A DNA stretch of 64,000 bases, taken from the IMG/VR virus record IMGVR_UViG_3300021959_000022, positions 17,608 through 81,607 of that record. One strand, 5' to 3'. Source of the stretch: a virus. Shown here in pieces: positions 21,328 to 46,671 of this stretch. Under the pieces are notes generated by a model. That model made no database searches, was not told the origin of the DNA, and was given only the letters and a program-made list of their open reading frames with translations. How positions within the stretch are numbered: the first letter of the stretch is position 1; each line of letters begins with the position of its first letter. Made by a program: the position numbers and the translations under genes.

Positions 21328-21329
21328 TA

Positions 21330-21358: not shown

Positions 21359-21364
21359 ATTCGT

Positions 21365-23972: not shown

Positions 23973-24892
23973 AACAAGTAAAAATTGCAGACTGCGACAT
24001 AGTTTTCCTGTCATACGATGAACCAAACTGCGAACAGAATTGGGCAGACTTGGCGGCCAAAGTGCCATGGGCCAAACGAGTGCATGGCGTCAAAGGACCT
24101 GACAGAGCACACAAAGAATGTGCCATGATCGCAGAAACGGACAGATTCGTCACAGTGGATGGAGATTCCATCATTGATCCGAGATTCATTGAACAGATCA
24201 TCACTGTGGAAGATGACGTGGACGTCGAAAATTCCGTGCTGTCATGGTGTGGACAAAATTCCGTGAATGGCCTGCTGTATGGCAACGGTGGCCTCAAGGG
24301 TTGGCCCAAACATTATGTGTTGACCATGAAGAGCCATGAAGCCGCTGACACAGATCGTGCTCGAGTTGATTTTTGTTGGGAAGGAAACTACATTCATTTG
24401 AACAAGTGTTTCTGTAAGACAGTGATCAATTCAACTCCCGAACAGGCATGGCGGGCAGGATTCAGGGAAGGCGTCAAGATGACGCTGGATCGTGGGTTAA
24501 AAGTTGATCCGCATGCCATCAATCAAAATCATTGGAAGAACATGGACAGATTGTACATATGGCAGATGGTGGGCGCTGATGTTGACAACGGATTGTGGGC
24601 CATCCTTGGAGCAAGGCAGGGATCATATCTGACCAATCTCACAGACTTTGATTGGGTACAGATCAGGGATTCGGACTACCTAAGCACATACTTCAAGAGC
24701 GAAGTTTCCACCACCATAAATGACGCTAATATCATGGAAAAAATACATGAGTATGGTCGATCTTTGGTGGAACAACTACACTTCCCCATCGCTGTGGAAC
24801 CGCTGAGTCCACAGCAGAGCATATTCCACAAGTCGGTGTACAGGAATCCGGAAAGGACCATCAAGGGATTTATGGACTACACAAATGGATGA
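23969..24892 (+). CDS. Putative glycosyltransferase (GT-A-like)
   Basis: 'IVFLSYDEP', 'RVHGVKG', 'FVTVDGD' DxD, 'NGLLYGNGGLK', 'AWRAGFREGVK'. Confidence 0.55.
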   Translation: MKQVKIADCDIVFLSYDEPNCEQNWADLAAKVPWAKRVHGVKGPDRAHKECAMIAETDRFVTVDGDSIIDPRFIEQIITVEDDVDVENSVLSWCGQNSVNGLLYGNGGLKGWPKHYVLTMKSHEAADTDRARVDFCWEGNYIHLNKCFCKTVINSTPEQAWRAGFREGVKMTLDRGLKVDPHAINQNHWKNMDRLYIWQMVGADVDNGLWAILGARQGSYLTNLTDFDWVQIRDSDYLSTYFKSEVSTTINDANIMEKIHEYGRSLVEQLHFPIAVEPLSPQQSIFHKSVYRNPERTIKGFMDYTNG

Positions 24893-26285
24893 GTTTCAGG
24901 ACGTTAAAAAATTTTCCAATGAGTTGGATGCTATCAGTCCCAGCATGTGTTTCGCCAAATGGAAGCAGGTCACACTACATCTGCAAACAGGACACAATCA
25001 TTCATGCCATCACCCCAAGACACACAAGACACCCATCGAAGAATTAAAGCAGGATCCTTCTGCCCTACACAACACAGAGTTCAAAAAATCACAGCGAGCA
25101 CTCATGCTCAAAGGACAGAGACCCGCAGAGTGTGACTACTGCTGGCGAGTGGAAGATTCGTCACCCAACAAACAGGTTTTGTCTGACAGATACACCAAGA
25201 GTTATGAACCATGGGCACAGGATTATCGTGATGAGATCGTAAAGACTGGCACGGGCAACATCAATCCTTCGTATCTTGAAGTTTCGTTTTCCAATGTGTG
25301 TAATTTCAAATGTTCCTACTGTGCGCCTGAGATATCCTCAAAGTGGATGGAAGAAATCAAACAGCATGGAGCGTACCCCACTTCCACGAGATTCAATAAT
25401 TTGGAAAACGTGGAAAAACAAAACAAGATGCCCATACCACACAAAGACCCAAATCCATATGTGGACGCTTTTTGGGAATGGTGGCCCGAGCTGTACAAGG
25501 ATCTGAGGGTGTTTAGGATCACGGGCGGAGAGCCGTTGATGACCAAGAACACGTTCAAGGTGCTGGACTATGTGATAGAAAATCCAAATCCCAAGATATC
25601 GATCAACATCAACTCCAATCTGTGTGTGCCCAAAGACATATTAGACAAATTCATAGAAAAAGTCAAAAGGATACAAGGCGAAAACATGATCGCACAGTTC
25701 CAATTGTACACATCTAATGAAGCCAAAGGATCGAGGGCAGAATATATAAGACACGGGTTAGATTACAACCAATGGTTGGATAATTGTAGACGTATTTTAT
25801 CTGAAATCCCCAAATCCAAACTCACAAACATGGCCACATACAATGCTCTCAGTGTGACATCATTCCAAGAATTCATGCAGGATTGGTTACAGTTGAGAAA
25901 AGAATTCATGTCTGGTCCTGAAAGACGCAATCCTGTCAGCCTTGATGTGGCATATCTGAGATGGCCATGGCATCAAAACATACACATCCTGCCCAAATCC
26001 TACAGACAAATGATTGAATCACAGGTGACTTGGATGTACCAAAACAAGGAAGTTGGCGATTGGCCTCCACTGTGTGGCAATGGTTGGTATGATCATGAAA
26101 TCAATAGAATGAAACGCATATATTTTGTGGCCAAGCAAGGTCCGGATCAATCATTTGATGTTGAACAGGCCAAGAAAGATTTTGTTAAGTTTGTGGATGA
26201 ACATGATCGCAGACGTGGCACGAACTTTTTAAAAACATTTCCTGAAATGACTGCTTTCTATCATGAGGTGAAAGATGCAATTTGA
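24885..26285 (+). CDS. Radical SAM protein with N-terminal twitch-like Fe-S domain (#1)
   Basis: CNFKCSYC, 'ITGGEP'; N-terminal 'CFAKW...SCHH...ECDYCW'. Confidence 0.85.
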   Translation: MDEFQDVKKFSNELDAISPSMCFAKWKQVTLHLQTGHNHSCHHPKTHKTPIEELKQDPSALHNTEFKKSQRALMLKGQRPAECDYCWRVEDSSPNKQVLSDRYTKSYEPWAQDYRDEIVKTGTGNINPSYLEVSFSNVCNFKCSYCAPEISSKWMEEIKQHGAYPTSTRFNNLENVEKQNKMPIPHKDPNPYVDAFWEWWPELYKDLRVFRITGGEPLMTKNTFKVLDYVIENPNPKISININSNLCVPKDILDKFIEKVKRIQGENMIAQFQLYTSNEAKGSRAEYIRHGLDYNQWLDNCRRILSEIPKSKLTNMATYNALSVTSFQEFMQDWLQLRKEFMSGPERRNPVSLDVAYLRWPWHQNIHILPKSYRQMIESQVTWMYQNKEVGDWPPLCGNGWYDHEINRMKRIYFVAKQGPDQSFDVEQAKKDFVKFVDEHDRRRGTNFLKTFPEMTAFYHEVKDAI

Positions 26286-26907
26286 TTATATATTAGATAA
26301 TATAGCCAAAGCAGAACTCAAACTCAAACCATGGCCATACATCTCAGTACAAAATTTCCTCAAGGAAGAACATTTGCAACTTTTTATCGATGATTGGCAC
26401 AGCATTGATTGGTTAGAGCATGAAGATAAAAAGGAAGAGTACAAGAGAAATTGGGAAGAACCAAACTGGGTGCGTGATTATTATTCTGAAGAGCACAGCA
26501 AAGAATTAAAAAACTTTTTATCAAGTTTTGAAGTGTTTGACATCATGCAACAGAAATTTGATAGATGGTTTGATTGGAAAAACATATGGGTAAAACGCAT
26601 GTTCAAACGTGATGATCCTGGATGCGGCGATTACAGTCACACAGATGTTTGGATTCATTCGTACATGGTGTTACAAATCTTTTTTCCTGATCAATCATAT
26701 GATAAATTTGGCACAGTGTTGCAGGAATATGAGCATCAGCCACATGATGAAGCAGTTGAACTTCCTCTAAGGAGGAACCAAATGTCGGGTTTTGCAAACA
26801 CACCAACTACTTGGCATGCGGTCAGACCGGGCAACAGGCTAAGGAAAAGTTACATCCAAAGATTTTTATACAAGGACGGACACAACCCATATTACAATGA
26901 GCAGTGA
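26275..26907 (+). CDS. 2OG-Fe(II) oxygenase
   Basis: HxD (HTD), distal 'WHAV', RxS ('RKS'). Confidence 0.7.
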   Translation: MQFDYILDNIAKAELKLKPWPYISVQNFLKEEHLQLFIDDWHSIDWLEHEDKKEEYKRNWEEPNWVRDYYSEEHSKELKNFLSSFEVFDIMQQKFDRWFDWKNIWVKRMFKRDDPGCGDYSHTDVWIHSYMVLQIFFPDQSYDKFGTVLQEYEHQPHDEAVELPLRRNQMSGFANTPTTWHAVRPGNRLRKSYIQRFLYKDGHNPYYNEQ

Positions 26908-28306
26908 TTTATACAATTGGCGTAAAAAAACATTAGACTCTGTGAGTCCTTCTTTCTGTGCGGCCAAATGGTTGAATGCTTCCATACATTTGGGCCATGG
27001 CTACACACATTCCTGTCATTTGCCCATACCACATCCCATAGATCGTGAAGCCATCAAAACAGATCCTTCTGCCATCCACAACACAGAACACAAGAAGAAA
27101 CAGCGAGCCAAGATGCTGTCAGGCATCAGACCCGCTGAGTGTGAATACTGCTGGAAGATTGAAGACATCGGTAGAGAAAACATTTCAGACAGGGTGTACA
27201 AATCCAAGATATACAATCAAGAAGACATTGATGCCATAGCCAAACTGCCACCACAACAGAATGTGATGCCAAGGACACTGGAGATATCATTCGATCGTGT
27301 GTGCAACTTTGCTTGTTCATACTGCAACGCCGGCTATTCCACCACCTGGGGCAAGGACATCAAGACAAATGGAGCCTATCAAAATTTGGTCACAGATGGT
27401 GCGGGTGCTTATCACAACACGGGTGAATGGGCAGAACCATACGGACCATTAAATGAAGGCAATCCCTATGTGGAAGCATTCTTCCGTTGGTGGCCAGAAC
27501 TTTCTAAACACCTACAAGAGTTACGAATAACTGGTGGCGAGCCCATGATGGGCAACGGATTATGGCGACTACTCCAATCCATGTCCAAACAATCATTGCC
27601 ATCGATGAGATTCGCGGTGAACAGCAATTTGGGTATCAAGAAAGAACTTTTGAACAAATTGATTGGATACACACATCAATTGGACGTCAAGTCTTTCGAT
27701 TTGTACACTTCTTGTGAAGCATACGGCACACAGGCGGAATACATCCGCGATGGATTGAATTACAACGAATGGAGATCGAATCTTGTGGCTTTCATGGACA
27801 ATGCAAATTTTAGATCAGTGACTATGATGATGACGATAACTTCTTTGAGTCTATTTTCTATTGTTGATTTTATGGATGATATGATCGAGTTGAAAGAAAA
27901 ATACGGTCACAATCGACCTTTGCTTGATCTAAACATATTAAGGTGGCCGTCATTTATGAGTCCTCTGGCATTACCTGATGACATCAAAGATTATTGCAGA
28001 ACAAAATTAAAATATTGGTATGCCACCCATAAGCATCATGAATTACTGGGTGAAGGTGAGTTGGCACAGATACAAAGATTGATTGACTACATAGAAACAG
28101 TGGATAAACCACATCGCAGAACCACAGAAGACAAGGCCAAACTACAGGCAGATTTTAAAAGTTTTTATCAACAATATGATCAGAGACGTGGCAAAGACAT
28201 CAACAAGGCCTTTCCACCTGTACTAACTGACTGGCTGAACACTGTTGAAATACAGCATAAAGAATCCAAAACCATATCACAGGGTATTTCTAACTATGAA
28301 GATTAA
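26897..28306 (+). CDS. Radical SAM protein with N-terminal twitch-like domain (#2)
   Basis: CNFACSYC, 'ITGGEP'; N-terminal 'CAAKW...SCHL...ECEYCW'; close paralog of 24885. Confidence 0.85.
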   Translation: MSSDLYNWRKKTLDSVSPSFCAAKWLNASIHLGHGYTHSCHLPIPHPIDREAIKTDPSAIHNTEHKKKQRAKMLSGIRPAECEYCWKIEDIGRENISDRVYKSKIYNQEDIDAIAKLPPQQNVMPRTLEISFDRVCNFACSYCNAGYSTTWGKDIKTNGAYQNLVTDGAGAYHNTGEWAEPYGPLNEGNPYVEAFFRWWPELSKHLQELRITGGEPMMGNGLWRLLQSMSKQSLPSMRFAVNSNLGIKKELLNKLIGYTHQLDVKSFDLYTSCEAYGTQAEYIRDGLNYNEWRSNLVAFMDNANFRSVTMMMTITSLSLFSIVDFMDDMIELKEKYGHNRPLLDLNILRWPSFMSPLALPDDIKDYCRTKLKYWYATHKHHELLGEGELAQIQRLIDYIETVDKPHRRTTEDKAKLQADFKSFYQQYDQRRGKDINKAFPPVLTDWLNTVEIQHKESKTISQGISNYED

Positions 28307-29570
28307 TGTTGCATATGATAGGTTGGGTGAGTATAATCTATCTCACACGGAACTCCATGATCGTTTCAAGAATGCACCAAAATGGATAGAGTTTGACTTT
28401 GATCAAGTCGAGGAAAACACAATACAATATTTTTGCTCCAAGAATGAAAAATTTGTGTACAATCTCGGCACCATCGGTGGACCAAAATGGTGGTTGTGTG
28501 GCGGCAAAGGCAAATTGTTTGACTACTTTTCTACCGAATTGATTGCACAAGCACAACAAGGCAATGCTTGGATACACATTGATCAATCCATGGAGGGATT
28601 TCCCCTTTTAGAAATTCAAACACCATACAACAAAACAAGGATAGTTGATGCATTTAAAATGTTGCATGATAATCTTGAAACCTATAATATCAATCCGAGT
28701 CAATTGATCTACAGCACATCCAATTTGATAGAAAGATACAATTATCATTCTTGGTGCAGGGAACACAATGTGAGTAAAAAATTCCATATGGTCATTATAC
28801 CGTTTTTTGCCTGTGCGACTCAGCAGAGTGGATTCTTTGATTGGGTGGATAGACCAGACTACAGAGATGATCCGCACAATGTTCTGCTCCAAGATCAGAT
28901 CAACTATAAGGCCACACACGAAATTTCACTGCTGAACTGTTTGAATCGTGTGCAAAGGACACACAGAGCACCGTTCGTGGCCATGCTAAATTACTATAAT
29001 TTGATCGAAGGAAATATAGTGAGCCATGACAATCTTGAAACTCATTTGAAAAACACAATTAAAATTTACAATTGGTCGGATCATCCTTCTTTCAATGACC
29101 CTAATTTTTCCGATTTGAAATCTAAACTTCCTTTGACGTATGACATGAAAGATTTTTCTGTAAATCATGCACAAAATTTGAACAAGGAAATATATCTTAA
29201 AACATATGTGAGTGTGATTACTGAAACTCTTTATGAAGATTGGAAACCAACAGTGTTCTTTTCTGAAAAGATATTCAAACCCATGAGAGCACATCACCCA
29301 TTTATATTAGTGTGCCATCAACACGGCCTGCATTGGCTTAAAAGATTAGGGTTTAAAACTTTTAACCAATGGTGGGATGAATCCTACGATGATGAATCCG
29401 ATCCAGTAAAAAGAATGGAAAAAGTTTGCATGGTTTTGAAAGATCTCAAAAAGTTATCTGTGCATGAATGGGTATGGTTGTATGAACAAATGAGCGAAAC
29501 ACTGACACACAATTACAACCATTTATTGAATACTAAGTGGTTCCAAGGAAAATATCATGACATCTTTTAA
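28296..29570 (+). CDS. Hypothetical protein, possibly glycosyltransferase-like
   Basis: C-terminal 'VITETL...FFSEKIFKP...HPFI...LGFKTF...DESYD' resembles the 'TEK' motif region of GT10-type fucosyltransferases; start set at ATG 28296. Confidence 0.4.
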   Translation: MKINVAYDRLGEYNLSHTELHDRFKNAPKWIEFDFDQVEENTIQYFCSKNEKFVYNLGTIGGPKWWLCGGKGKLFDYFSTELIAQAQQGNAWIHIDQSMEGFPLLEIQTPYNKTRIVDAFKMLHDNLETYNINPSQLIYSTSNLIERYNYHSWCREHNVSKKFHMVIIPFFACATQQSGFFDWVDRPDYRDDPHNVLLQDQINYKATHEISLLNCLNRVQRTHRAPFVAMLNYYNLIEGNIVSHDNLETHLKNTIKIYNWSDHPSFNDPNFSDLKSKLPLTYDMKDFSVNHAQNLNKEIYLKTYVSVITETLYEDWKPTVFFSEKIFKPMRAHHPFILVCHQHGLHWLKRLGFKTFNQWWDESYDDESDPVKRMEKVCMVLKDLKKLSVHEWVWLYEQMSETLTHNYNHLLNTKWFQGKYHDIF

Positions 29571-30369
29571 AAGAGTGTTTTGTTTTGGTTGTTCGTTCAC
29601 AGAGTATCAATGGCCCACGTGGGCGACCATTCTGCAAAAAGATCTCGATGTACCTGTGTACAATTGGGGGCTGTGTGGCATAGGCAACAGGGGAATACTT
29701 TCCAAAATGGTGCAGGCAGATGTCAAGCATGGTTTCAACCAAGATGATCTAATCATGGTGGTTTGGACTTCATGGACCAGAGAGGACAGATACATCCAGG
29801 GGCATTGGCGTAATCATGGTAATTTGCTCAACCAGGATTTCTATGACAGGAACTTCATCAGCAGATATTGGGATTGGGAAAACGATATAATCAACAACTC
29901 AACCTGCATAATCTCTGCCAATCTTGCTTACAAACCATGGTTAAATGGATCGATTGTAAAAACTGATAAACCACAAGATCTTTACATACCAAATCAAACA
30001 GACAAGGACAAGATAGAACTGCAAAACCAGAGGAACATGATAGATTTTTATGTGTCAAAATTACCAAAGATGCAATACTTTGACATGAACGAGAATTCGT
30101 ATTATAATAACACAACAACAGATGGTCATCCGGATATTATGTTGCACAAAAAATTTGTTTTAGAAAAAATTTATCAACCATTGGGTATAGAAATGAAGAA
30201 TACCACCCATCAAGACATACAAACATTCTATGATCATGCTGTTGAAAAGTTTTCTTCCTTCAAAGATCAAAAGTATGCTTGGGAAAAAATGGTAGATGCC
30301 TGCAAGGATCTTTGGCACCACGGAGATTGGCAGAGATCGAGGATAGACGATTGGAACACAAATGTATGA
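29557..30369 (+). CDS. SGNH/GDSL-like hydrolase or acyltransferase
   Basis: Block I 'FGCSFT', block II 'NWGLCGIGN', catalytic-type 'DGHP'. Confidence 0.55.
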   Translation: MTSFKRVFCFGCSFTEYQWPTWATILQKDLDVPVYNWGLCGIGNRGILSKMVQADVKHGFNQDDLIMVVWTSWTREDRYIQGHWRNHGNLLNQDFYDRNFISRYWDWENDIINNSTCIISANLAYKPWLNGSIVKTDKPQDLYIPNQTDKDKIELQNQRNMIDFYVSKLPKMQYFDMNENSYYNNTTTDGHPDIMLHKKFVLEKIYQPLGIEMKNTTHQDIQTFYDHAVEKFSSFKDQKYAWEKMVDACKDLWHHGDWQRSRIDDWNTNV

Positions 30370-31931: not shown

Positions 31932-32139
31932 TCTCACTCTCAGACAAATGCAAATGGAGTCTGCCCGGGCGTTAGTGGTCATGGAAGCAACCAATAACAA
32001 TCTTTCCAAGTTCAACCACACAGCCAGCCACGACAGCCAAAATTGGTACAGAGCCGTGATAGAATGGTATGTTGATCAATACGGAGATCTGCCCAGCAAG
32101 ACAGGTCCGGCCAAAGATGTCAAATTATTGGCCGAATAA
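31918..32139 (+). CDS. Small hypothetical protein
   Basis: 73-aa ORF overlapping the upstream gene. Confidence 0.55.
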   Translation: MDTSNLTLRQMQMESARALVVMEATNNNLSKFNHTASHDSQNWYRAVIEWYVDQYGDLPSKTGPAKDVKLLAE

Positions 32140-32142
32140 ATA
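32137..32142 (+). promoter_or_regulatory. Possible late promoter core (TAAATA)
   Basis: AATAAATA 5 nt before ATG 32148; overlaps a TAA stop, so chance occurrence is plausible. Confidence 0.35.
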
Positions 32143-32147
32143 TCCAT

Positions 32148-32771: not shown

Positions 32772-32772
32772 T
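32743..32772 (+). promoter_or_regulatory. Sigma70-type promoter
   Basis: TTGATT-18 nt-TATAAT, 7 nt before ATG 32780. Confidence 0.5.
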
Positions 32773-32779
32773 AGTTTTA

Positions 32780-33856: not shown

Positions 33857-33860
33857 TAAC

Positions 33861-39722: not shown

Positions 39723-40774
39723 CCATAGCGACCTACACAGAATTCCAACCGTTAAAAGAAGTATTGGTTGGATCAGCATTTGAAACATCTAATTTTGATC
39801 ATGTTGAAGATCTTGAAGCAAGAGATCTGTTCAAACGAGTCTTTGAGGAAACCAACGAAGATTTGGAAACGCTGTGTGGTATTTTAAAACAAGCAGGTGT
39901 GACTGTACACAGACCCAAACAAATATTCAATTTCAGTGAAGAACAAACAGTGATCACACCATGGATGAAATCTTGGTTTCCAAATCACCCATTGATGCCA
40001 AGGGACATAATGGGAGTGTATGGTTCCAATGTGGTTGAACACTTCACCGGTGATGCTGGAAGATTCTTTGAGAACCTGGCATATCAACCCATCAGCAGAT
40101 CGTTGTATGACAGGGGTATGAGATGGCTGAGCATGCCGATGCCGTATGTGACCACAGACAAGATCCCATACAAAGACATGAACAACAGCCAAATCTTTTA
40201 TCATGCCGCAAATGTCATCAAATGTGGCAAGGATCTATTTTACAGCCTTCCCGGCGATGTTGATTTCGTTAAAGGCAAAGGCACTTCAGCAGGCATAGAA
40301 TGGCTACAACGTGAGTTGGGCGATCAATTCAGATGGACAAAGATTCCAACTGGCGGCCACGCGGACGGCAAAATTGCACTGTTAAAACCCGGTGTGTTGA
40401 TGACCTGGAACAGGAATTGGGTTCCAGAGAAGTTGCAGGATTGGGACATCATCGAAGTCAGATCCGAAACCGAACTGCCAAATGAAATACAGTACATGAA
40501 AAAACAGAGATACTACAAAAACTTCATCCAAGAATGGTTCTCGCATTGGATAGGTTGTGTGGAAGAAACTGTGTTCGATGTCAATGTGTTTTCCATAGAC
40601 GAATCCACAGTAATCTGCACAGGCAAGAATCAGTACGCATTCCGTAGGATGGAGAAGCATGGCATCACCCCTATATATTGGAAGTTCAGACATCAATATT
40701 TTTGGGATGGCGGCATACACTGTGTCACACAGGATCTTGTGAGAGAAGGCAATCAAGAGGATTATTTTGCTTAA
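39719..40774 (+). CDS. Amidinotransferase (glycine/inosamine-phosphate amidinotransferase family, pentein fold)
   Basis: 'EFQPLKEVLVG', 'PRD', 'HADG' and terminal catalytic 'GGIHCVTQD'. Confidence 0.8.
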   Translation: MTIATYTEFQPLKEVLVGSAFETSNFDHVEDLEARDLFKRVFEETNEDLETLCGILKQAGVTVHRPKQIFNFSEEQTVITPWMKSWFPNHPLMPRDIMGVYGSNVVEHFTGDAGRFFENLAYQPISRSLYDRGMRWLSMPMPYVTTDKIPYKDMNNSQIFYHAANVIKCGKDLFYSLPGDVDFVKGKGTSAGIEWLQRELGDQFRWTKIPTGGHADGKIALLKPGVLMTWNRNWVPEKLQDWDIIEVRSETELPNEIQYMKKQRYYKNFIQEWFSHWIGCVEETVFDVNVFSIDESTVICTGKNQYAFRRMEKHGITPIYWKFRHQYFWDGGIHCVTQDLVREGNQEDYFA

Positions 40775-42095
40775 GAGCCAATTAAAATATGACATACTTT
40801 TAGACTCGTTGGGTCATACCGACGGCACTCTACTGCAACCATCACCTCGATGCATCGCTCCATTCTTGTGCCTCACAATAGATCCCAATGGAGATGTTTT
40901 CACGGACTCTGTGTACAGATTGGCATTAGGCAATCTGCATGAACAGTCTCTCAAGGAAATCTGGGAAGGCGACACTTGGAAACAACTGAGGCAGGATCAG
41001 ATAGACAGGAAGATAAATCCTGGGTGTGTTGATTGTGCAAACAAAGACAAGATGATAGGCCACAGTCGTAGAAGATTCTATGACACTTTTTTTATGTACA
41101 GGATGCCACGGAATCAAATGGAACCGATCACAGACGACCAAGGCTGGAATCTCACCCTAAGACCCAAAGTGACAGATTACAATAATCCCAATTTCCTTTA
41201 TCTCGATATCAGCACATCAAACAAGTGTAATTTAAAATGTGTACATTGCAGAGGAGCCGTCAGCACAGGATGGATACCCGACGAAAAGAAACTTCAAAAG
41301 TCTGACATCAAGGATTTGAGGATGAACAGGTTTGGTGTGTACAGCATGGAAACTGATGTGATTGATAAGATATTCCAATTTCCAGAGTACTTTAAGAATC
41401 TAAGATATGTTGCACTGCGTGGCGGTGAACCCACATACGAAGCCAAGAACAAGATCATCCTCAAAAAATTGATCGATCTTGGTTGGAACAGCCAGATCAC
41501 CATAGACATTTCGACCAACGCCACAGTGAACGACGAGGAATTCATGGACCTGTTAGGACAGTTTGAAAGTGTGATGCTCTACATCAGCATCGAGGGAGTC
41601 GGTGAAATGTATGAGTATTGTAGAGGTGGCAAGCAGTACAAGATAGACGATCTCGAGAAGATGATATTCAAATACGCAAACTTGCGAAACAACGAAATTT
41701 GTGTTACATTTACAAGCATGGCCACAAACATATTCAACATCAGGGCAACTTGGGATTGGCTACAGAAGTACAGGGATTATTGCACCTTCTCATTCTCCAA
41801 CACAGTGAGCCAGCCGGAATATCTCAGCCTTGGAGCATTGAACAATGAAATGAGGAAAGAAGCATACGACATGATACAGGACATACACGAAGACATGCCA
41901 TGGCCGGGCGAGTTCAACAGAAGTTATCAAGCGGGGATAGACAAGTTGAAGGTCAATCTCAACAAGCCTGAGCTACCGAACTGGCAAACATATTTTAACA
42001 ATTTCAAAAGGTACATCACTGCCATAGACAAAGTGAGAAACACAGACTTTTTAGAAATAGAACCAACATACAGGAAATTTTGGGAGATAAAATGA
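40767..42095 (+). CDS. Radical SAM protein with N-terminal twitch-like domain (#8)
   Basis: CNLKCVHC, 'RGGEP'; N-terminal 'RCIAPF...LGNL...GCVDC' (the CC pair is replaced by 'DS'). Confidence 0.8.
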   Translation: MLKSQLKYDILLDSLGHTDGTLLQPSPRCIAPFLCLTIDPNGDVFTDSVYRLALGNLHEQSLKEIWEGDTWKQLRQDQIDRKINPGCVDCANKDKMIGHSRRRFYDTFFMYRMPRNQMEPITDDQGWNLTLRPKVTDYNNPNFLYLDISTSNKCNLKCVHCRGAVSTGWIPDEKKLQKSDIKDLRMNRFGVYSMETDVIDKIFQFPEYFKNLRYVALRGGEPTYEAKNKIILKKLIDLGWNSQITIDISTNATVNDEEFMDLLGQFESVMLYISIEGVGEMYEYCRGGKQYKIDDLEKMIFKYANLRNNEICVTFTSMATNIFNIRATWDWLQKYRDYCTFSFSNTVSQPEYLSLGALNNEMRKEAYDMIQDIHEDMPWPGEFNRSYQAGIDKLKVNLNKPELPNWQTYFNNFKRYITAIDKVRNTDFLEIEPTYRKFWEIK

Positions 42096-43033
42096 GCAAC
42101 AAATTCTCGGGACTTTTTAAAGACTACTTGGGCACTACTGGCAACAGCACTACCATAGAACCACCCTTTAAATTCTTACAGGATCATGTCAAGGAACATG
42201 GATGGTTCAATATCGATTACGATGTACAAGACGAGTATCTGGACACTTTCACACAATGGATCAAGTCTTCCAAGTTGAACAAGGTGGAAGGCCTCGACAC
42301 TTTTCCATTCAAGTATGTGAGCCTTGGTGCCACACAAACACTGGATTGGTTCCATTATGAATGTGCAAGGAACAAATGGCGACTCAGAATGCTCAGAGGC
42401 GAGTACCCGTACAACAGAGATGTACATGAATTCTATTGGGAATGGTTCATAGACGATGAAAACGAACCACTACAAAAAAATGATGCGGTGGTGATGAGTG
42501 TGCCTTTTTCTGGTGCAGGTCACATCCATCCGAGGTATTATGAAATATTAGAAAAGTGTGATCAACTCAATATTCCTGTTATGATTGATTGTGCATGGTT
42601 TGGTACTTGTTATGGTCTTGAGTGGACTTTGGATTTCAACTGCATCAAAGTGGTTGCTTTCTCCACAACCAAGGGTTTGGGCACAGGACAATTCAGATCT
42701 GGCATCTGCTACACCAAATGGAAATACGGCCCGATGGCTGTGCAAACAGAATGGCATCATGGCATCCATTTGAACACATATGTTGGTAACATGCTGATGA
42801 AAGAATTCAGTCCTGACACTGTGCCAAACTTGTACAGAGAATCTCAGCACGAGGTGTGCAAATACTTTGGTTTAGTACCATCGCCCACAATCCATATAGC
42901 ATCTGGCAGAAAACCAGATTGGGATTTTTTCCATAGAGATAGTTCATACAACAGAATCAACATAAGGAAGCCTGTGTTTGACTATTATAAAAATAAGTTT
43001 TATAATGTAGTTGAGGAAAGATTGAATGGCTAA
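42092..43033 (+). CDS. PLP-dependent enzyme (fold type I, aminotransferase-like)
   Basis: 'VMIDCAW' (DxA) and 'FSTTKGLG...RSG' (Schiff-base Lys); SD GGAG before ATG 42092. Confidence 0.7.
   Translation: MSNKFSGLFKDYLGTTGNSTTIEPPFKFLQDHVKEHGWFNIDYDVQDEYLDTFTQWIKSSKLNKVEGLDTFPFKYVSLGATQTLDWFHYECARNKWRLRMLRGEYPYNRDVHEFYWEWFIDDENEPLQKNDAVVMSVPFSGAGHIHPRYYEILEKCDQLNIPVMIDCAWFGTCYGLEWTLDFNCIKVVAFSTTKGLGTGQFRSGICYTKWKYGPMAVQTEWHHGIHLNTYVGNMLMKEFSPDTVPNLYRESQHEVCKYFGLVPSPTIHIASGRKPDWDFFHRDSSYNRINIRKPVFDYYKNKFYNVVEERLNG
42978..43006 (+). promoter_or_regulatory. Internal sigma70-type promoter
   Basis: TTGACT-17 nt-TATAAT inside the 3' end of the PLP gene; GAGG SD and ATG 43026 follow. Confidence 0.6.
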
Positions 43034-43823
43034 CTTAAGATACATCACCTGTTGCAAGAATTACAGACAGCAAATTATCGAACGATTCAGACCTGCACAA
43101 AAGATACCAAAGTTCTTCAGCAAGAGCGAAATAGAAAAGATAAGGCTGTATCAATTTCAAAATGCACACAGAGCCAAGTTTCAAGAAACAGCATCCAACA
43201 TACAGTCTGTAGTTGATATGACAGACATGTTTAAAAAGATGCCATGGTTGCAGTATAGATTCGAAGAATTATTCGGCAGGGGAGAATTTTCTACTGAACA
43301 CAGCGGTAACTTTTACATCACCACACAGCCACACGATTGCCACGTTGATTTGCCCACTGAGGATGAACACACATATAGATGGTATGACAACATGATTCCG
43401 TGGAAGAGTGTGATTATTCCTCTGTTCTTAAGACATGGAACTAAAGCTTGGACAGCATTTTACAAACAAAGACGCATTGGCTATTCAGTGACGTTTGACA
43501 GAGATTTTTCCAGCAGTCAAGATAATTCTGCATACAGGATAGCAAGAGTGTATGATGGACTTATTGATCAGTTCGGCAATCCCACAGATCCTGAAAAAGA
43601 TTATGGACAGTGGAGCGAACAAAGATATCCACATGTGTCACAAAATAATTTGAGAGGTTTCGAAGAGGAAACAATATTAGAACACGAAACAGGAAGTTTA
43701 TTTGTGTTTGATGCTTGTCAGATACATGCCAGTGTGCTTCACGATGGTAAACCTGCCGACTGGATGAAGAACGGAATCAACATACAATTTTACAAATATC
43801 ATGACAGTTCAAAAGAGTTTTGA
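43026..43823 (+). CDS. Putative Fe(II)/2OG dioxygenase (PhyH-like)
   Basis: 'CHVD' HxD and 'GSLFVFD...IHAS'. Confidence 0.55.
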   Translation: MANLRYITCCKNYRQQIIERFRPAQKIPKFFSKSEIEKIRLYQFQNAHRAKFQETASNIQSVVDMTDMFKKMPWLQYRFEELFGRGEFSTEHSGNFYITTQPHDCHVDLPTEDEHTYRWYDNMIPWKSVIIPLFLRHGTKAWTAFYKQRRIGYSVTFDRDFSSSQDNSAYRIARVYDGLIDQFGNPTDPEKDYGQWSEQRYPHVSQNNLRGFEEETILEHETGSLFVFDACQIHASVLHDGKPADWMKNGINIQFYKYHDSSKEF

Positions 43824-44274
43824 TGAGTTCAGAGATAAGTTTCTTGCATGGAGCGAATCTCACATAGAAAAGGTGAAACCCAACGGGTTTCCTGTTTGTC
43901 CATACGCAAGAAAAGCCAGACTGGGCAATGAGATACAGTTCATTGATGCACGGGAAAATATAAACTCTTGTGTGGACGAATTAGATCTCAAGAAATACAT
44001 GATAGCCATATGCTGGTTGGGAGACGAGATGGCATACACCCAAAAATACATCGACAAGAAGATCAAAGAGTTTTCAGAAGATCCCAAGCACACCAATCTA
44101 TTATTCTTTATCAGCAATAAAGAATCAGGTGCTTTTGTTAAGAACTTTACCAACTGCATATTTGTGCAGATCAAAAGCGATATCATGAGCAGGAGAGCCT
44201 ATCTAAAACACACTAATTACTACGATAATTGGCCTGCGGAGTATTACAAGTACATTACAGGCGAGGACAAGTAA
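43801..44274 (+). CDS. Hypothetical protein (DUF1415-like CPYA motif)
   Basis: 'W...IEK......PVCPYARKA' motif. Confidence 0.45.
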   Translation: MTVQKSFDEFRDKFLAWSESHIEKVKPNGFPVCPYARKARLGNEIQFIDARENINSCVDELDLKKYMIAICWLGDEMAYTQKYIDKKIKEFSEDPKHTNLLFFISNKESGAFVKNFTNCIFVQIKSDIMSRRAYLKHTNYYDNWPAEYYKYITGEDK

Positions 44275-44285
44275 AACACCGCTGT

Positions 44286-45536
44286 ATGACGCTTAAACCA
44301 CCATTAAAACAGCAGATATCCGAGGATCCTACTGCTGATATATCGCCTACTTTCTGCGTGTTACCTTTCATGCATTTGGCAACAAACGCCAGTGGCAAGT
44401 ACAGAGTTTGCTGTAATTCAACACCTGGTAAAAACCATATTGTTGATGAGAACAATGAACCCATGAAATTAGATCAGCACGACATAGAAGAAGTTTGGAA
44501 CCTTCCTTATTATCAAAAAATCAGACAGCAGTTTATTAATGGAGAACGTCCTGAAATTTGCCAGAGATGTTTTTCAGAAGAAGATGCGGGCGTTAAAAGT
44601 GCGAGGCAGAGTTACAACGAATCATGGTACAATGACACCATAGACATCCAAACAGAGTATGCTCATCCTGATATAAGATACATTGATCTAAGACTGGGCA
44701 ATCTGTGTAATTTAAAATGTAGGATGTGCAATCCGTATGCAAGTTCACAGTGGGTGAAAGAATGGAACGATGTCGTTAGCACAGCAGAATTGGTGCCCAA
44801 TGAAAAATTACCCGAAGATGAAATCAAAAGGCTATCCAACATGGACTGGTTTGAAAACAGCAAGGTATGGGATAACATTTCTAAAATTGCTGACTGCATA
44901 GAAGAAATATATCTGACCGGAGGAGAGCCGACACTCGCCACAAAACAATATGACCTGTTCCAATACTTGCAGGACAAGGATTTCGCCAAACACATACGTT
45001 TGAAATACAACACCAATCTTACAAACATTCCGGACAGGATGGTTTGGTACTGGCACTTCTTTAAAATGGTCAAGATAAATGCTTCAATAGATGCTGTTGG
45101 AGATTTGGATAGGTACGTGAGATATCCATCTTCGTGGAACAAGATTGAAGAAAACTTTAAGAAACTGAGAAGACTTAGAAACACCAGACTCCAGATTCAT
45201 TCTACCGTGCAGACTTATAACATCTTAGCACTTCCTAAATTGTATGAATGGTGCGATTCCATCATGTTCGATGATGTGTACTTAAATATTTTAAATCATC
45301 CCAAGTGCTTGAACATAAAAACACTACCTTTAGAGTTGAAAAAATTAGTTGAGGAAAGACTTCAACCATACACAAACAGGCCAAAGGTCAAACAAGTCAT
45401 CCAATACATGTACTCTGAAGATTGGTACGCAACGTACTGGAAGGAGTTTGTTGATTACACAAACGCCCTTGATAAAAGCAGAGGAGAAAATATCTTAGAT
45501 TTAGTTCCTGAGTTCAAGGAGTTCTGGAATGTCTAA
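44286..45536 (+). CDS. Radical SAM protein with N-terminal twitch-like domain (#9)
   Basis: CNLKCRMC, 'LTGGEP'; N-terminal 'FCVLPF...VCC...ICQRCF'; start moved to ATG 44286. Confidence 0.85.
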   Translation: MTLKPPLKQQISEDPTADISPTFCVLPFMHLATNASGKYRVCCNSTPGKNHIVDENNEPMKLDQHDIEEVWNLPYYQKIRQQFINGERPEICQRCFSEEDAGVKSARQSYNESWYNDTIDIQTEYAHPDIRYIDLRLGNLCNLKCRMCNPYASSQWVKEWNDVVSTAELVPNEKLPEDEIKRLSNMDWFENSKVWDNISKIADCIEEIYLTGGEPTLATKQYDLFQYLQDKDFAKHIRLKYNTNLTNIPDRMVWYWHFFKMVKINASIDAVGDLDRYVRYPSSWNKIEENFKKLRRLRNTRLQIHSTVQTYNILALPKLYEWCDSIMFDDVYLNILNHPKCLNIKTLPLELKKLVEERLQPYTNRPKVKQVIQYMYSEDWYATYWKEFVDYTNALDKSRGENILDLVPEFKEFWNV

Positions 45537-46671
45537 CTTGGCAACATCGGAATACGATTTCAGTGCGATTCCGTTTGATGATATCGTTAGTGTTGGACAA
45601 AGGACACTGCTGTACAGAGATATATTTTCTGTGAGTTGGTTGTTGGGGAGATTTTGTAATTACAGATGTTCGTACTGCTGGCCATACGCCAGATCCAACA
45701 CCAAGGACCATAGACCAACTGAGTTGTGTTTACAAACCATCGACGAAATCAAAAGACAGGCCAGGGAAAGATCATTCAATTCATTCCATTTTTCATTGAG
45801 TGGCGGCGAACCAACCTTCCATCCCGGATATCTGGACATAATGAAGCATCTTGCAGATGATGTTTCCAACACCAACTACACATCTGTACACATGACATCC
45901 AATTGTTCAAGGCCGATGAAATGGTTCGAAACATATGTTGATCATGCGTCTAAGTTTCACAGGGCATCCATCACTGCCAGCCTACACGTGGAACACGTCA
46001 ACACTCCCGACCGCATGCAGGACTTCGCCGACAAGTTAATTTACTGTCAAGAACACGATGTGCAAGTCACTATCAATATGGTTATGGTTCCGGAATCATT
46101 TGATCGCTACTATGAAAATGCTTTGTTCTTCCACAACCAAGGCATAAATGTCACACTCAAGCCACAGTCGGACACCACCGCATCTAAGATTGTAGACGGC
46201 TACACGGATGAAATGAAGGAAAAATTATACAACGGCATGCCGCAGAGAGCATTCACTGAAGTTAAAAACAAATATGTCATGAGACCCAAACCCAAATTCC
46301 CTATAGAATCAAAAGAAAACATCACTCACAACACGGAAGTTCCGCAACACTTTCAAGTGGAGTTCCAAGATTCCAAGGGCAAGAAATGGTACATGGACCA
46401 AGCAGAACGATTCAATGCTTTCAATTTTAACAAATTCGAAGGTTGGGAGTGTTCATCTGGATATAGATCAATCATCATAAGGGAACCTGACGGTTCGATA
46501 AAAAGATCTTATTCTTGTGCAGATGTGCCTTTGGGTAACATCGAAACAGGATTCAAGTTGTTCGATGCTCCAATGCCGTGCATAACAAAAAGTTGTGTGA
46601 GTTCAGCGGACAGTAAAATTCCAAAACGGAAAGTCGGTAGCGGAGTTAAATTATACCCTCATTCATCGTGA
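45529..46671 (+). CDS. Radical SAM protein with C-terminal Cys-rich domain (#10)
   Basis: CNYRCSYC, 'LSGGEP'; C-terminal 'WECSSG...SC...LGNI...PCITKSC'. Confidence 0.85.
   Translation: MSNLATSEYDFSAIPFDDIVSVGQRTLLYRDIFSVSWLLGRFCNYRCSYCWPYARSNTKDHRPTELCLQTIDEIKRQARERSFNSFHFSLSGGEPTFHPGYLDIMKHLADDVSNTNYTSVHMTSNCSRPMKWFETYVDHASKFHRASITASLHVEHVNTPDRMQDFADKLIYCQEHDVQVTINMVMVPESFDRYYENALFFHNQGINVTLKPQSDTTASKIVDGYTDEMKEKLYNGMPQRAFTEVKNKYVMRPKPKFPIESKENITHNTEVPQHFQVEFQDSKGKKWYMDQAERFNAFNFNKFEGWECSSGYRSIIIREPDGSIKRSYSCADVPLGNIETGFKLFDAPMPCITKSCVSSADSKIPKRKVGSGVKLYPHSS

Follow-up and report, generated by a model that had tools for sequence, protein, structure and literature searches.

Genomic setting of the radical SAM array

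The question raised by this locus is what a phage would make with ten radical SAM enzymes encoded in eleven ORFs at positions 24885-46671 of the window, the window being the whole 64,000-nucleotide stretch analysed (positions 17,608 to 81,607 of IMG/VR record IMGVR_UViG_3300021959_000022). The source is an uncultured, ~350-kb, estuarine jumbo myovirus. Ten such genes had been counted in a first-pass annotation, and all were found where it had placed them. The enzyme array to which they belong covers 26 kb directly downstream of, and contiguous with, tail-fibre genes; its largest intergenic gap is 47 nt and 25 of 33 gene junctions overlap. Features from the start of the window were as follows.

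8-3277, + strand: baseplate wedge protein (tblastn to annotated jumbo-myovirus baseplate wedge proteins, 32-37% identity)
3277-16062, + strand: giant protein of 4261 aa (virion gene context)
within 8-20374, between the 4261-aa protein and the fibres, + strand: 215-aa protein (virion gene context)
16747-18738 and 18779-20374, + strand: two tail-fibre proteins (PHROG tail and tail-fibre families)
20422-21718, + strand: two ORFs of 301 and 117 aa (no Pfam, PHROG or NCBIfam match)

Virion gene order over 8-20374 is the same in a related phage (G001), in which homologs of the 301- and 117-aa ORFs also follow the fibres; such homologs occur in 13-22 of 80 related viral loci. As judged by its baseplate protein, the phage belongs to the GAP32/CBB/PA5oct/SCTP-2-like jumbo group. 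The island holds a fixed position between tail-fibre genes and a convergent downstream module, and the stretch is best explained as the enzyme half of a hypervariable island. Radical SAM genes make up 44% of ORFs across the 80 loci, and 12 of the 18 non-radical-SAM ORFs of the array have no detectable family. The array genes are real and under purifying selection; of 262 population differences in it, the 40 listed comprise 34 synonymous and 6 non-synonymous changes and no indel. The same phage genotype was present in sequencing runs of 2018 and 2023.

The seven N_Twi radical SAM enzymes

Family membership was tested with NCBIfam model NF033640 (N_Twi_rSAM) at its curated cut-off of 170 bits. 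Seven ORFs match over their full length (214-420.1 bits), in agreement with the N-terminal twitch domain radical SAM family that the first-pass annotation had named for them, and a six-frame search of the whole contig returned the same seven. Because none of 14 well-known control genomes has any match over this cut-off, the array lies far above chance.

24885-26285, + strand: N_Twi radical SAM 1, 466 aa (334.5 bits; Cys 22/41/83/86, then CX3CX2C at 139)
26897-28306, + strand: N_Twi radical SAM 2, 469 aa (308.9 bits; Cys 21/40/82/85, then CX3CX2C at 136)
35770-37125, + strand: N_Twi radical SAM 3, 451 aa (214 bits; Cys 33/51/94/97, then CX3CX2C at 156)
37115-38524, + strand: N_Twi radical SAM 4, 469 aa (420.1 bits; sole conserved-core paralog)
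38514-39722, + strand: N_Twi radical SAM 5, 402 aa (282.4 bits; Cys 10/31/32/76/79, then CX3CX2C at 122)
40767-42095, + strand: N_Twi radical SAM 6, 442 aa (224.3 bits; Pfam SPASM at residues 29-90, E=5.3e-10)
44229-45536, + strand: N_Twi radical SAM 7, 435 aa from TTG or 416 aa from the ATG at 44286 (385.5 bits; Cys 24/42/43/92/95, then CX3CX2C at 141)

A further radical SAM match, outside the array at ~55758-56090 of the window, fits QueE. Five of the seven gene starts given earlier stand; the other two, 35776 and 44286, are ATG codons lying downstream of the GTG or TTG starts of their ORFs at 35770 and 44229.

Four or five Cys precede CX3CX2C in each protein, as had been described, with the pattern C-x17-20-C(C)-x41-62-C-x2-C, from which 40767 departs (C29/C35/C87/C90). 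When a profile of this N-terminal domain is compared with BtrN, it matches the twitch domain at the C terminus (E=4.8e-6) with all four cluster Cys in register, and by this alignment the two domains are homologous; the earlier statement that the domain order is the reverse of the usual one therefore holds. The paralogs share 20-32% mutual identity, six of the seven have a sister in another phage, and their catalytic motifs are kept, with C149/C153/C156, GGE, N256, S279 and R291 invariant in all seven. Their description as diverged and intact is thus borne out; on sequence grounds they are old and non-redundant, and that they would serve distinct steps or substrates, at a large iron-sulfur cost for a phage, is reasonable to infer. 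Orthologs of 37115 at 73-78% identity were found in 202 IMG/VR stretches, and it matched 3224 clusters at E<=1e-5. A literature search found no paper naming the N_Twi_rSAM family or assigning it a function.

Peptide-modifying SPASM/twitch enzymes (8vpo, SkfB, 5wgg) are among the solved structures nearest to N_Twi in sequence, TPR fusions were seen in 3/9 long N_Twi proteins, and one N_Twi representative carries a fused FkbM methyltransferase. The structures and TPR fusions, together with the contiguity of array and fibre genes, favour an alternative that we regard as unlikely, in which the radical SAM enzymes, proteins with an HxD...H pattern and a methyltransferase-like protein would directly modify the tail fibres or the 4261-aa protein after translation, in their side chains or along the backbone, by epimerisation, cross-linking, hydroxylation or methylation, as anSME, PoyD and sactisynthases do. 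Against it, the array yielded no repeated small precursor-peptide genes, RiPP recognition element or proteins sharing N-terminal tags.

The other three radical SAM enzymes

32780-33856, + strand: radical SAM enzyme, C-terminal region SPASM-like with six Cys (Pfam Radical_SAM E=6.5e-5; CX3CX2C at residue 18; conserved core)
34862-35542, + strand: core of a split radical SAM enzyme, 226 aa (Pfam Radical_SAM E=3.4e-16)
35532-35783, + strand: Cys-rich SPASM/twitch-like piece of the split enzyme, 83 aa (six Cys; Pfam SPASM E=4.9e-4, just below the gathering score)
45529-46671, + strand: radical SAM enzyme, C-terminal region twitch-like with four Cys (Pfam Radical_SAM E=4.8e-14; conserved core; last gene of the array)

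In 32780, 34862 and 45529, CX3CX2C is N-terminal, and the C-terminal Cys sets predicted for all three enzymes were located (C255, C274, C275, C334, C342 and C346 in 32780; C308, C330, C351 and C356 in 45529). The 35532 piece lies in the +1 frame relative to the 34862 core with an 11-nt overlap, and a two-ORF split of this kind recurs in two related loci (L014 and L021). A minus-strand ORF at 34886-35569 was rejected as an antisense artefact of the split locus (34862-35783). Homologs of at least 60% identity to 32780 and 45529 occur in 67/80 and 49/80 loci, respectively.

Transferase-like genes and other core proteins

21711-22571 and 22562-23413, + strand: paralogous pair of GT8-like (glycogenin-like) glycosyltransferases (profile A2)
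23406-23972, + strand: 188-aa ORF (no family match; weak homologs in 10/80 loci)
23969-24892, + strand: first probable GT2-like (GT-A) domain protein (paralog of 30362)
26275-26907, + strand: 210-aa ORF with an H-x-D ... H pattern (no family match)
28245-30369, + strand: ORFs of 441 and 270 aa (no family match)
30362-31042, + strand: second probable GT2-like (GT-A) domain protein (conserved core)
31026-31931, + strand: three 23-aa repeats, then a probable SAM-methyltransferase-like domain (conserved core; conserved motifs in alignment A4)
31918-32139, + strand: highly conserved 73-aa protein, no Cys (conserved core)
32148-32771, + strand: 207-aa ORF of a recurrent island family (no family match; homologs in 23/80 loci)
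33861-34862, + strand: 333-aa ORF (no family match; homologs in 4/80 loci)

Assignment of glycosyltransferases in the array is weak, and profile-profile tests of these assignments were not significant. The GT8-like profile matched glycogenin-1/-2 chains over ~105 residues (E=1.3e-4), reaching the invariant D109-x-D111. Glycogenin self-glucosylates, and this best solved match, itself a modifier of protein, would suit direct protein modification. The putative GT2-like proteins 23969 and 30362 share 32% identity and invariant D57/D59; Pfam GT2 matches were obtained for 5/120 listed members of their family, the domain in one fusion protein (L058) matched Glycos_transf_2 at E=7.6e-4, and GT2 is the nearest named cluster in the Atlas (0.87), which serves only as a lead. 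Homologs of 30362 at 40% identity or more occur in 63/80 loci. In many relatives the two parts adjoin each other or are fused, and 17/69 relatives carry 23969-like, 30362-like and 31026-like parts on one polypeptide; here, the two GT2-like genes are separated by a 5.5-kb insertion made up of the genes at 24885-28306 and the 28245-30369 ORFs.

The 31026 repeats start at residues 24, 48 and 71, and repeat number ranges from 0 to 11 among 69 homologs. Its end domain is a probable methyltransferase, from motifs and Atlas leads (Methyltransf_31/PCMT/NAS clusters, 0.85-0.94); no PDB sequence match was found. The 73-aa protein (31918; 68% mean column identity), with homologs of at least 40% identity in 64/80 loci, gave no Pfam or PHROG match and no meaningful PDB match. 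ORFs 26275 and 33861 are weakly similar (E=2e-4), and an oxygenase role for 26275 would be a guess only.

The amidinotransferase and aminotransferase cassette

39719-40774, + strand: amidinotransferase of the StrB1/HsvA/SxtG/AGAT family (profile A11)
42080-43033, + strand: fold-type-I PLP aminotransferase-like protein, 317 aa (profile A8)
43026-44274, + strand: ORFs of 265 and 157 aa (no Pfam, PHROG or PDB match)

Profile matches identify both enzyme folds. Profile A11 aligned over its full length to inosamine-phosphate amidinotransferase 1bwd (E=1.3e-63) with His334-Cys335 invariant, and profile A8 matched aminotransferase 3if2 (E=6.5e-6) and valine-pyruvate aminotransferase (3.3e-4), with D170, S195 and K198 invariant in the family. 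The 265-aa protein has invariant H106-x-D108 ... H234; its hhalign comparison with a PhyH protein was not significant, and an oxygenase role is a guess. In the cultured cyanophage S-SCSM2R, a homologous amidinotransferase adjoins KdsA, KdsB, a glycosyltransferase and 2OG oxygenases.

These enzymes also suit a different product, a free aminocyclitol or guanidino-sugar of the aminoglycoside/streptidine type, released or used in the infected cell without attachment to a polymer. Among solved proteins, 39719 matches StrB1 of the streptomycin pathway best; the PLP aminotransferase is close by, the N_Twi twitch domain is closest to that of BtrN from butirosin biosynthesis, and a similar S-SCSM2R trio is termed 'antibiotic synthesis genes' in a paper on that phage (PMC12801897). 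We nevertheless consider a free small molecule quite improbable, as the cassette varies (only 5/80 loci have an amidinotransferase homolog at 40% identity or more), transferase-like and radical SAM genes make up the conserved core, the array lacks exporter and resistance genes and none of its 29 genes encodes a predicted membrane protein, and the fibre-adjacent position and GT-GT-repeat-methyltransferase fusions suggest a polymer.

Bacterial clusters and accessory genes of relatives

N_Twi proteins are present in 79/301 Bdellovibrionota genomes, and the conserved core of the island forms a single cluster in Bdellovibrionota chromosomes; a core common to phage and these chromosomes is newly described here. 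Orthologs were found there of 37115 (59-60% identity), of 32780 (43-48%), of 42080 within the clusters (35-38%) and of 45529 (58-68%; 16/301 genomes, mostly a few kb from the 37115 ortholog). In four Bdellovibrionota genomes, matches to Wzx (PF01943), Wzy_C (PF04932) and ABC-2 (PF01061) all fell outside the N_Twi clusters, which sets the bacterial version apart from canonical O-antigen and capsule loci.

Hypermodification of phage DNA, with the island supplying an unusual sugar, is highly improbable. The QueE-like match fits it, as does a preprint on DNA-glycosylating virus-encoded glycosyltransferases (10.1101/2023.12.21.572611); however, the island lies on the virion-gene strand and is contiguous with virion genes rather than with a replication or modification module, it is also a chromosomal cluster in Bdellovibrionota, and family searches detected none in the island that binds nucleic acids or modifies bases.

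Accessory families of relatives' islands, sampled as 149 representatives, include sugar-type families (CTP_transf_3, NTP_transf_3, Sulfotransfer_2 and FkbM methyltransferase, two each; UDP-glucose/GDP-mannose dehydrogenase, one) and four Asp/Asn beta-hydroxylase-type families (Asp_Arg_Hydrox). The latter point to protein substrates, as does a Bacteroidota cluster (G086) adjoining a T9SS-secreted, fibre-like Peptidase_S74 protein, with no glycosyltransferase in the seven neighbouring genes scanned. Conversely, the amidinotransferase, the aminotransferase and the relatives' CMP/NDP-sugar enzymes fit small-molecule or sugar chemistry better than protein modification, and the Bdellovibrionota clusters examined had no fibre-like neighbour detectable by BLAST.

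Proposed pathway

We tentatively favour, at somewhat less than an even chance, the reading that the island enzymes tailor a sugar, or a polymer of sugars, by radical chemistry. The island would encode a soluble pathway for the synthesis and extensive tailoring of this product, although no nucleotide-sugar-activating enzyme was recognised in the window. The GT8-like and tandem GT2-like transferases would assemble a sugar chain, the GT2-like pair being fused in many relatives to a helical-repeat spacer of variable length and, at the end, a methyltransferase-like domain. Each N_Twi enzyme would bind the SAM-cleaving [4Fe-4S] cluster and a second cluster in its N-terminally moved BtrN-type twitch domain and, by analogy with BtrN and other twitch enzymes, abstract hydrogen from an unactivated C-H bond in the ring of a sugar or cyclitol, with every paralog having a position or substrate of its own. 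The most concrete proposal concerns the cassette at 38514-43033, in which a radical SAM enzyme would oxidise a secondary alcohol, the PLP aminotransferase would convert the resulting ketone to an amine, and the StrB1-type amidinotransferase would convert the amine to a guanidino group. The sugar substrate, this order of steps and late co-expression with the fibres are what we infer; the product may decorate virion proteins or remodel the envelope glycan of the infected cell.

Comparison with known systems

NF033640 has the same domain order, twitch first and then radical SAM core, but is a catalogue entry, whereas here seven old paralogs stand in one phage array. BtrN (2-deoxy-scyllo-inosamine dehydrogenase, butirosin; PDB 4m7t/4m7s) shares the homologous twitch domain, the CX3CX2C core and nearness to aminotransferase-type logic. 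Its twitch domain is C-terminal, that of N_Twi being permuted to the N terminus, and it has 250-270 aa, in contrast to 400-470 aa with an extra C-terminal region in N_Twi, so that the likeness is limited to the domain and does not extend to the whole protein. Streptidine logic (StrB1 plus aminotransferase) is matched by full-length likeness of 39719 to StrB1 and a PLP aminotransferase two genes away; there, however, oxidation is by NAD-dependent dehydrogenases rather than, as proposed here, radical SAM enzymes, no kinase or cyclitol synthase was recognised here, and the genes are of actinomycetes rather than of phage and Bdellovibrionota.

In WbdA/WbdD-type O-polysaccharide assembly, a coiled coil acts as a ruler. 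The two transferase-like domains, variable spacer and methyltransferase-like end of the relatives' fusions resemble WbdA polymerase with the WbdD kinase/methyltransferase terminator (PMC3482155; PMC11231755) in architecture only, with no sequence relationship shown, and the island spacer consists of 23-aa repeats that are not proven to form a coiled coil. Among phages, Zaragoza-Solas et al. 2020 (PMC7029224) describe a 'host recognition cluster' in pelagimyophages and cyanomyophages, and the T4-like marine viral genome of Nishimura et al. 2017 (PMC5332604), which has 12 radical SAM genes, resembles this phage in having many Fe-S proteins in a single marine myovirus. In these two papers radical SAM genes receive one sentence each, without family, structure or function; their phages are T4-like, of 130-180 kb, whereas the phage described here is of the jumbo group.

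Radical SAM genes of the array

One unbroken run of genes occupies the plus strand from window position 8 to 46671, with genes for a baseplate wedge protein, a 4261-aa giant protein and two tail fibres upstream of the ~26-kb array of 29 genes analyzed here (also termed the island; ORFs are named by window start coordinate). Membership in the radical SAM family N_Twi was assigned by NCBIfam profile search with NF033640 (curated cut-off 170 bits). The seven ORFs to which the first-pass annotation had attributed an N-terminal twitch domain all matched the whole model (positions about 1-398) above the cut-off, at 214-420 bits. A six-frame search of the 81.6-kb contig returned exactly the same seven matches over cut-off, and none were found in 14 well-known control genomes. 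With three further enzymes carrying the radical SAM motif at the N-terminus, the annotated total of ten radical SAM enzymes in 21.8 kb was reproduced. On profile and motif evidence, the array thus comprises seven intact N_Twi genes, three further radical SAM genes, two to four transferase-like genes, a putative amidinotransferase and a putative aminotransferase.

Predicted enzymes of the array, by window start coordinate
24885, 26897, 35770, 37115, 38514, 40767, 44229; plus strand; N_Twi radical SAM paralogs
32780; plus strand; radical SAM, N-terminal motif and Cys-rich C-terminal part (Cys motifs)
45529; plus strand; radical SAM, N-terminal motif and Cys-rich C-terminal part (Cys motifs, Pfam)
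34862 + 35532 (34862-35783); plus strand; split radical SAM pair, core and SPASM/twitch-like part
21711, 22562; plus strand; GT8-like pair (profile to glycogenins, E=1.3e-4, invariant DxD)
23969, 30362; plus strand; GT2-like (GT-A) paralogs, invariant DxD-like pair (PF00535, Pfam on homologs, Atlas)
39719; plus strand; amidinotransferase, StrB1/HsvA/SxtG/AGAT type (E=1.3e-63 to 1bwd, full length)
42080; plus strand; fold-type-I PLP aminotransferase-like, 317 aa (E=6.5e-6 to 3if2)

In the split pair, the radical SAM core and the Cys-rich SPASM/twitch-like part lie on overlapping ORFs in different frames (34862-35783), and the two-ORF split is also kept in relatives' loci L014 and L021. The pair may work as two subunits of one enzyme, be joined by a programmed frameshift, or represent an intermediate toward the N-terminal-twitch architecture. 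Outside the array, an eleventh, weak radical SAM match was seen on the minus strand at ~55758-56090 (NF033640, 18.8 bits, E=1.6e-5) and is probably a QueE-like gene of a deazaguanine module.

The N_Twi paralogs had been described as diverged and intact, and both terms proved apt: the seven are 20-32% identical, and the cluster cysteines C149/C153/C156 (CX3CX2C), G224-G225-E226 (GGE), N256, S279 and R291 are invariant in all of them and across 86 family members. In each paralog 4-5 Cys precede CX3CX2C, and Pfam SPASM was matched at the N-terminus in four of the seven. Two [4Fe-4S] clusters and reductive SAM cleavage are predicted for each N_Twi enzyme from these motifs.

Position of the twitch domain

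A profile of the N-terminal domain was made from the first 120 residues of 50 N_Twi family members and compared with solved structures. The best match was BtrN (4m7t, E=4.8e-6), with profile positions 5-74 aligned to BtrN 186-257, the C-terminal twitch domain of that enzyme, and with all four Cys of the phage consensus landing on BtrN Cys. Because the C-terminal twitch of BtrN aligns to the N-terminus of N_Twi, the twitch precedes the core and the domain order is permuted relative to solved enzymes, in agreement with the reversed order first proposed. The whole-protein N_Twi profile matched the SPASM/twitch group broadly (8vpo, SkfB, BlsE, 5wgg, Tes, viperins and MoaA).

Age of the paralogs and selection

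Trees were built with FastTree, and supports are SH-like values only. In a tree of 95 sequences, six of the seven paralogs had a sister from another phage (support 83-100), and 24885 and 26897 were the only pair of paralogs within one subclade; the duplications are therefore older than these phages. Population differences numbered 262. Among the 40 listed, 34 were synonymous and 6 non-synonymous, 35 fell at third codon positions, none were indels, and they were spread alike over radical SAM and unassigned ORFs. The synonymous excess and the old sister relationships argue that the paralogs are neither decayed nor redundant, and imply nothing on expression.

Accessory enzymes and proposed chemistry

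Scanning the accessory ORFs with Pfam, PHROG and NCBIfam gave almost no matches, and most are without a detectable family. The amidinotransferase family profile (39719) aligned to 1bwd over 4-348 of its 349 positions, and H334-C335 near the C-terminus was invariant in 8 family sequences, as expected of a member; we take the invariant Cys to be the catalytic nucleophile. The 42080 family profile aligned to 3if2 at positions 114-225, with D170, S195 and K198 invariant in 14 sequences, so that the conserved Asp and Schiff-base Lys lie over the PLP-binding core, as in fold members; this short protein may lack part of the fold at its N-terminus. For the GT8-like pair, the profile match covers only the first ~105 residues (the nucleotide-binding half), D109 and D111 are invariant, and Pfam gave no match to the single 21711 and 22562 sequences.

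A GT2-like fold for 23969 and 30362 has weak but consistent indications. One fusion homolog gave a PF00535 match that fell short of the gathering score (E=7.6e-4), GT2 Pfam matches were seen for 5 among 120 listed homologs, and the nearest named Atlas cluster was GT2 (0.87). The family profile found no usable match among PDB sequences, and hhalign of its alignment against the GT8-like alignment and against a GT2 fusion was not significant. In 17 of 69 relatives, parts corresponding to 23969, 30362 and 31026 form a single protein of 800-1220 aa, laid out as two transferase-like domains, a run of 23-aa repeats and a C-terminal domain; in the window the first two parts are separated by a 5.5-kb insertion (24885-30369). 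The repeat (LRKxVxExNLHSxFR...) occurs in 0-11 copies among 69 homologs (for example window 31026-31931, L027:1288-4956 and L037:26-3139), and the repeat run may be a length-setting spacer. For the C-terminal domain of 31026 and the fusions, a SAM methyltransferase fold is suggested by its motifs and Atlas neighbours; the 31026-family profile found no usable match among PDB sequences, and hhalign against a methyltransferase was not significant. The 43026-family profile likewise found no usable match among PDB sequences, with a non-significant hhalign against a PhyH protein. PDB matches to the 73-aa 31918 were rejected as short repeat segments of designed proteins only.

The reading we favour for the array as a whole, at slightly less than even odds, is radical tailoring of a sugar or sugar polymer. 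N_Twi enzymes would abstract hydrogen from sugar or cyclitol carbons, the resulting keto intermediates would pass to the aminotransferase and then the amidinotransferase, and the transferases would build a chain, possibly with the repeat spacer governing its length. The homology of the twitch domain, together with the aminotransferase and amidinotransferase close by, leads us to infer that N_Twi may oxidise a secondary alcohol of an aminocyclitol as BtrN does. The homologies to StrB1 and BtrN would also suit a free aminocyclitol-type metabolite; however, the genes of that cassette vary among relatives and the core seems directed at a polymer, and we rate this product as improbable.

Virus, genome setting and expression signals

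The contig is an IMG/VR record with a CheckV completeness of 23%. Completeness ratings of 51-72% for five relatives of 182-257 kb suggest a full genome near 350 kb. At 32-37% identity, the 1089-aa baseplate wedge protein resembles its counterparts in jumbo myoviruses, among them SCTP-2, Phosso, fHe-Yen9-03/04, XaC1, GAP32, CBB and PA5oct. Marine and estuary metagenome runs of 2018 contain the stretch nearly whole and may be the source of the record; 53-83% of its words were present in runs of 2023. For window 24885-44884, a near-identical genotype was found in estuary runs of both 2018 and 2023 (contigs up to 4 kb, 0-3 letters different). Megablast with the 21.8-kb stretch against cultured phages gave no match; tblastn gave only three weak matches for 37115 and none for 45529.

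Within the array, 25 of 33 gene junctions overlap, and no membrane segments were predicted in its 29 genes. The array is soluble and co-directional, is under purifying selection and occupies a fixed, hypervariable site next to the fibres. The T4 late-promoter motif had 0 matches (1.5 expected), and sigma-70-like sites showed no excess (47 seen, 47.9 expected). An RpoZ-like protein, sought as a clue to the host, had no match in four Bdellovibrionota genomes and one Bacteroidota genome and was uninformative. The neighbouring deazaguanine module is the sole point in favour of DNA hypermodification as the role of the island, which we regard as highly implausible.

An A-type Fe-S carrier (Pfam Fe-S_biosyn) was encoded by two of five related giant-phage contigs (G002:C1:98206-98508 and G004:C1:12993-13289); a search of this contig and four relatives, all of them fragments, detected neither IscU nor flavodoxin. 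The tripeptide D-S-[S/T] was enriched in the 4261-aa protein (3277-16062; 21 vs 5.3 expected, with 0 of 2000 shuffles reaching 21) and in the first fibre (16747-18738; 5 vs 1.2 expected, p=0.006), and was not enriched in the baseplate protein. The excess could reflect internal repeats instead of a modification site.

The island in related viruses

Relatives of 37115 were encoded by 202 IMG/VR stretches, and 3224 clusters of a large protein collection matched at E<=1e-5. Eighty of the 202 stretches were kept as loci (37115 identity 73-78%, each <=21 kb). ORFs were called by a simple longest-ORF rule, and all counts from this set are lower bounds since many loci are cut by contig ends. N_Twi genes numbered 0-8 per locus and radical SAM-like ORFs of any kind 2-12 (median 8), the latter making up 618 of 1406 ORFs of >=120 aa; 248 full-length N_Twi proteins fell into 79 clusters at 60% identity. 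Homologs of >=40% identity were present for 37115 in 79 loci, 32780 in 71, 31918 in 64, 30362 in 63, 31026 in 55 and 45529 in 49. The six N_Twi paralogs other than 37115 had best matches of 33-55% identity in the 80 loci. Conservation is confined to a core of island genes.

In the large related contig G001, gene order agrees with the window on either flank: baseplate, giant protein and fibres precede the island, and the same minus-strand module follows it. The G001 island spans ~57 kb vs 26 kb in the window. Two B12-binding radical SAM proteins of the class-B methyltransferase type lie in the G001 island (L102:5650-7614 and L103:15751-17604). N_Twi matches over cut-off in the five large relatives numbered 11, 2, 11, 9 and 2. 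Among 149 accessory-family representatives from relatives' islands, a Pfam census (figures for the first 25 of 41 families) listed Radical_SAM 8, Asp_Arg_Hydrox 4, TauD 3, CTP_transf_3 2, NTP_transf_3 2, Sulfotransfer_2 2, FkbM 2, UDP-glucose/GDP-mannose dehydrogenase 1, Asn synthase 1, several methyltransferase families and others.

The N_Twi family in bacteria

Among 1.84 billion cluster representatives, the family profile retrieved 9,811 (clusters at 50% identity) at E<=1e-30. Tandem double N_Twi proteins of ~750-1400 aa accounted for at least 31 of the best 150 representatives (for example L054:14454-16997 and P0241-P0271). Long N_Twi fusions contained TPR repeats in 3 of 9 scanned and an FkbM methyltransferase in 1 of 9.

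NF033640 exceeded its cut-off in 4 of 401 sampled Bacteroidota genomes, where N_Twi genes are also clustered, near PhyH/WelO5-type oxygenases, methyltransferases, a GT2-methyltransferase fusion, a GDSL-like protein and one secreted Peptidase_S74 fibre-like protein. One of the four (L081, from a MAG labelled Crocinitomicaceae) shares an identical 37115 ortholog with viral locus L013; its contig nests inside the phage clade in the tree and is probably phage DNA binned with a bacterium.

Among sampled Bdellovibrionota, 79 of 301 genomes encoded N_Twi, often in >=5 scored copies and on contigs of up to 2.9 Mb. In three of four regions examined, the phage core was present as one cluster with further N_Twi genes, its orthologs being 59-60% identical for 37115, 60-64% for 45529, 43-48% for 32780, 39-46% for the 23969/30362 pair, 35-45% for 31026 and 35-38% for 42080. 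An ortholog of 45529 was found in 16 of the 301 genomes, mostly a few kb from the best N_Twi match. Rooted with paralogs, all 28 sampled phage 37115 orthologs formed one clade (support 100) beside an unresolved Bdellovibrionota set, a topology that would fit one exchange between phages and Bdellovibrionota, in either direction. The bacterial clusters hold polytopic membrane proteins, which had no matches in a PDB search or plasmid tblastn, and one ABC-type ATPase.

Direct modification of proteins draws some support from the TPR fusions, the neighbours of Asp/Asn-hydroxylase type in relatives' islands, a Bacteroidota genome in which a fibre-like protein lies alongside, and nearest solved structures that modify peptides. 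A precursor, tag or recognition element was nevertheless not seen: there were no repeated small ORFs or shared tags, no RRE in Pfam scans and no N-terminal serine-rich tags in this genome, and the only small conserved protein (31918) is conserved over its full length and has zero Cys. We judge protein modification unlikely. Three small ORFs beside an N_Twi gene in the GC-rich MAG L107 were considered as precursors and rejected as spurious, given their Arg/Gly/Pro-rich composition.

Destination of the product

For sugar tailoring, two destinations fit. The lack of membrane and export genes and the position beside fibres suit cytoplasmic decoration of virion proteins; the bacterial counterpart of the core, and what others have proposed for similar islands, suit remodelling of the host envelope. 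In pelagimyophages, a 'host recognition cluster' with glycosyltransferases and radical SAM cassettes was described by Zaragoza-Solas et al. 2020 (PMC7029224), who proposed modification of the host O-chain.

A broader joint reading, which we offer as quite a long shot, is that the island is a self-contained glycan diversification engine shared by Bdellovibrio-like predators and giant phages. A GT-GT polymerase would make a chain whose length is set by the 23-aa-repeat ruler and the methyl-capping end domain, and shuffled permuted-twitch radical SAM enzymes would edit the product, with a distinct C-H functionalisation for each. Bacteria and phages would trade the kit and use it in an arms race to vary a coat relevant to recognition, be it on virion or cell. 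Within tandem arrays, fusion of the auxiliary domain of one gene to the next core would have given rise to the N-terminal twitch; the intermediates would be the tandem double N_Twi proteins and the split pair 34862/35532.

N_Twi and other radical SAM genes make up nearly half of a hypervariable island beside the host-recognition genes of giant phages that are abundant in marine and estuarine waters, and the island core is common to phages and predatory-type bacteria. If sugars are edited, the enzymes would constitute a novel, highly varied set of tools for radical carbohydrate chemistry, and the pathway would be an unusually costly one for a phage-encoded glycan, requiring at least 20 predicted Fe-S clusters per enzyme set; if proteins are edited, the array would represent virion maturation of a new kind. 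Under either reading the locus offers concrete clonable cassettes, such as 38514-43033 (radical SAM, amidinotransferase, radical SAM, aminotransferase).

Comparison with known systems

A search by family name found no published work naming N_Twi or giving it a function, and literature on radical SAM with twitch, phage, jumbo, tail fiber or glycosyltransferase held nothing further on function. Twelve radical SAM genes, along with genes for Fe-S assembly, were reported from a T4-like marine viral genome of 183 kb by Nishimura et al. 2017 (PMC5332604).

BtrN carries its twitch at the C-terminus, whereas N_Twi has the homologous domain at the opposite end of the protein. The alignment is limited to the twitch domain and does not extend to whole-protein similarity, so that N_Twi enzymes would be at most BtrN-like in working and not members of a BtrN-type family. 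Canonical O-antigen and capsule loci combine Wzx/Wzy or an ABC-2 exporter with a polyprenol-phosphate priming transferase; the present clusters differ from this type, and PF01943 (Wzx), PF04932 (Wzy_C) and PF01061 (ABC-2) were all absent from the N_Twi clusters of four Bdellovibrionota genomes. A 2025 paper on cyanophage S-SCSM2R (PMC12801897) terms a trio of aminotransferase, radical SAM and amidinotransferase genes 'antibiotic synthesis genes'. In our search, the matched amidinotransferase copy of S-SCSM2R (L108, 213353-214246 of the record) stood beside KdsA, KdsB, a glycosyltransferase and 2OG oxygenases. A homologous amidinotransferase was also present in Campylobacter phages CP220 and F379, and these three phages are possible culturable models.
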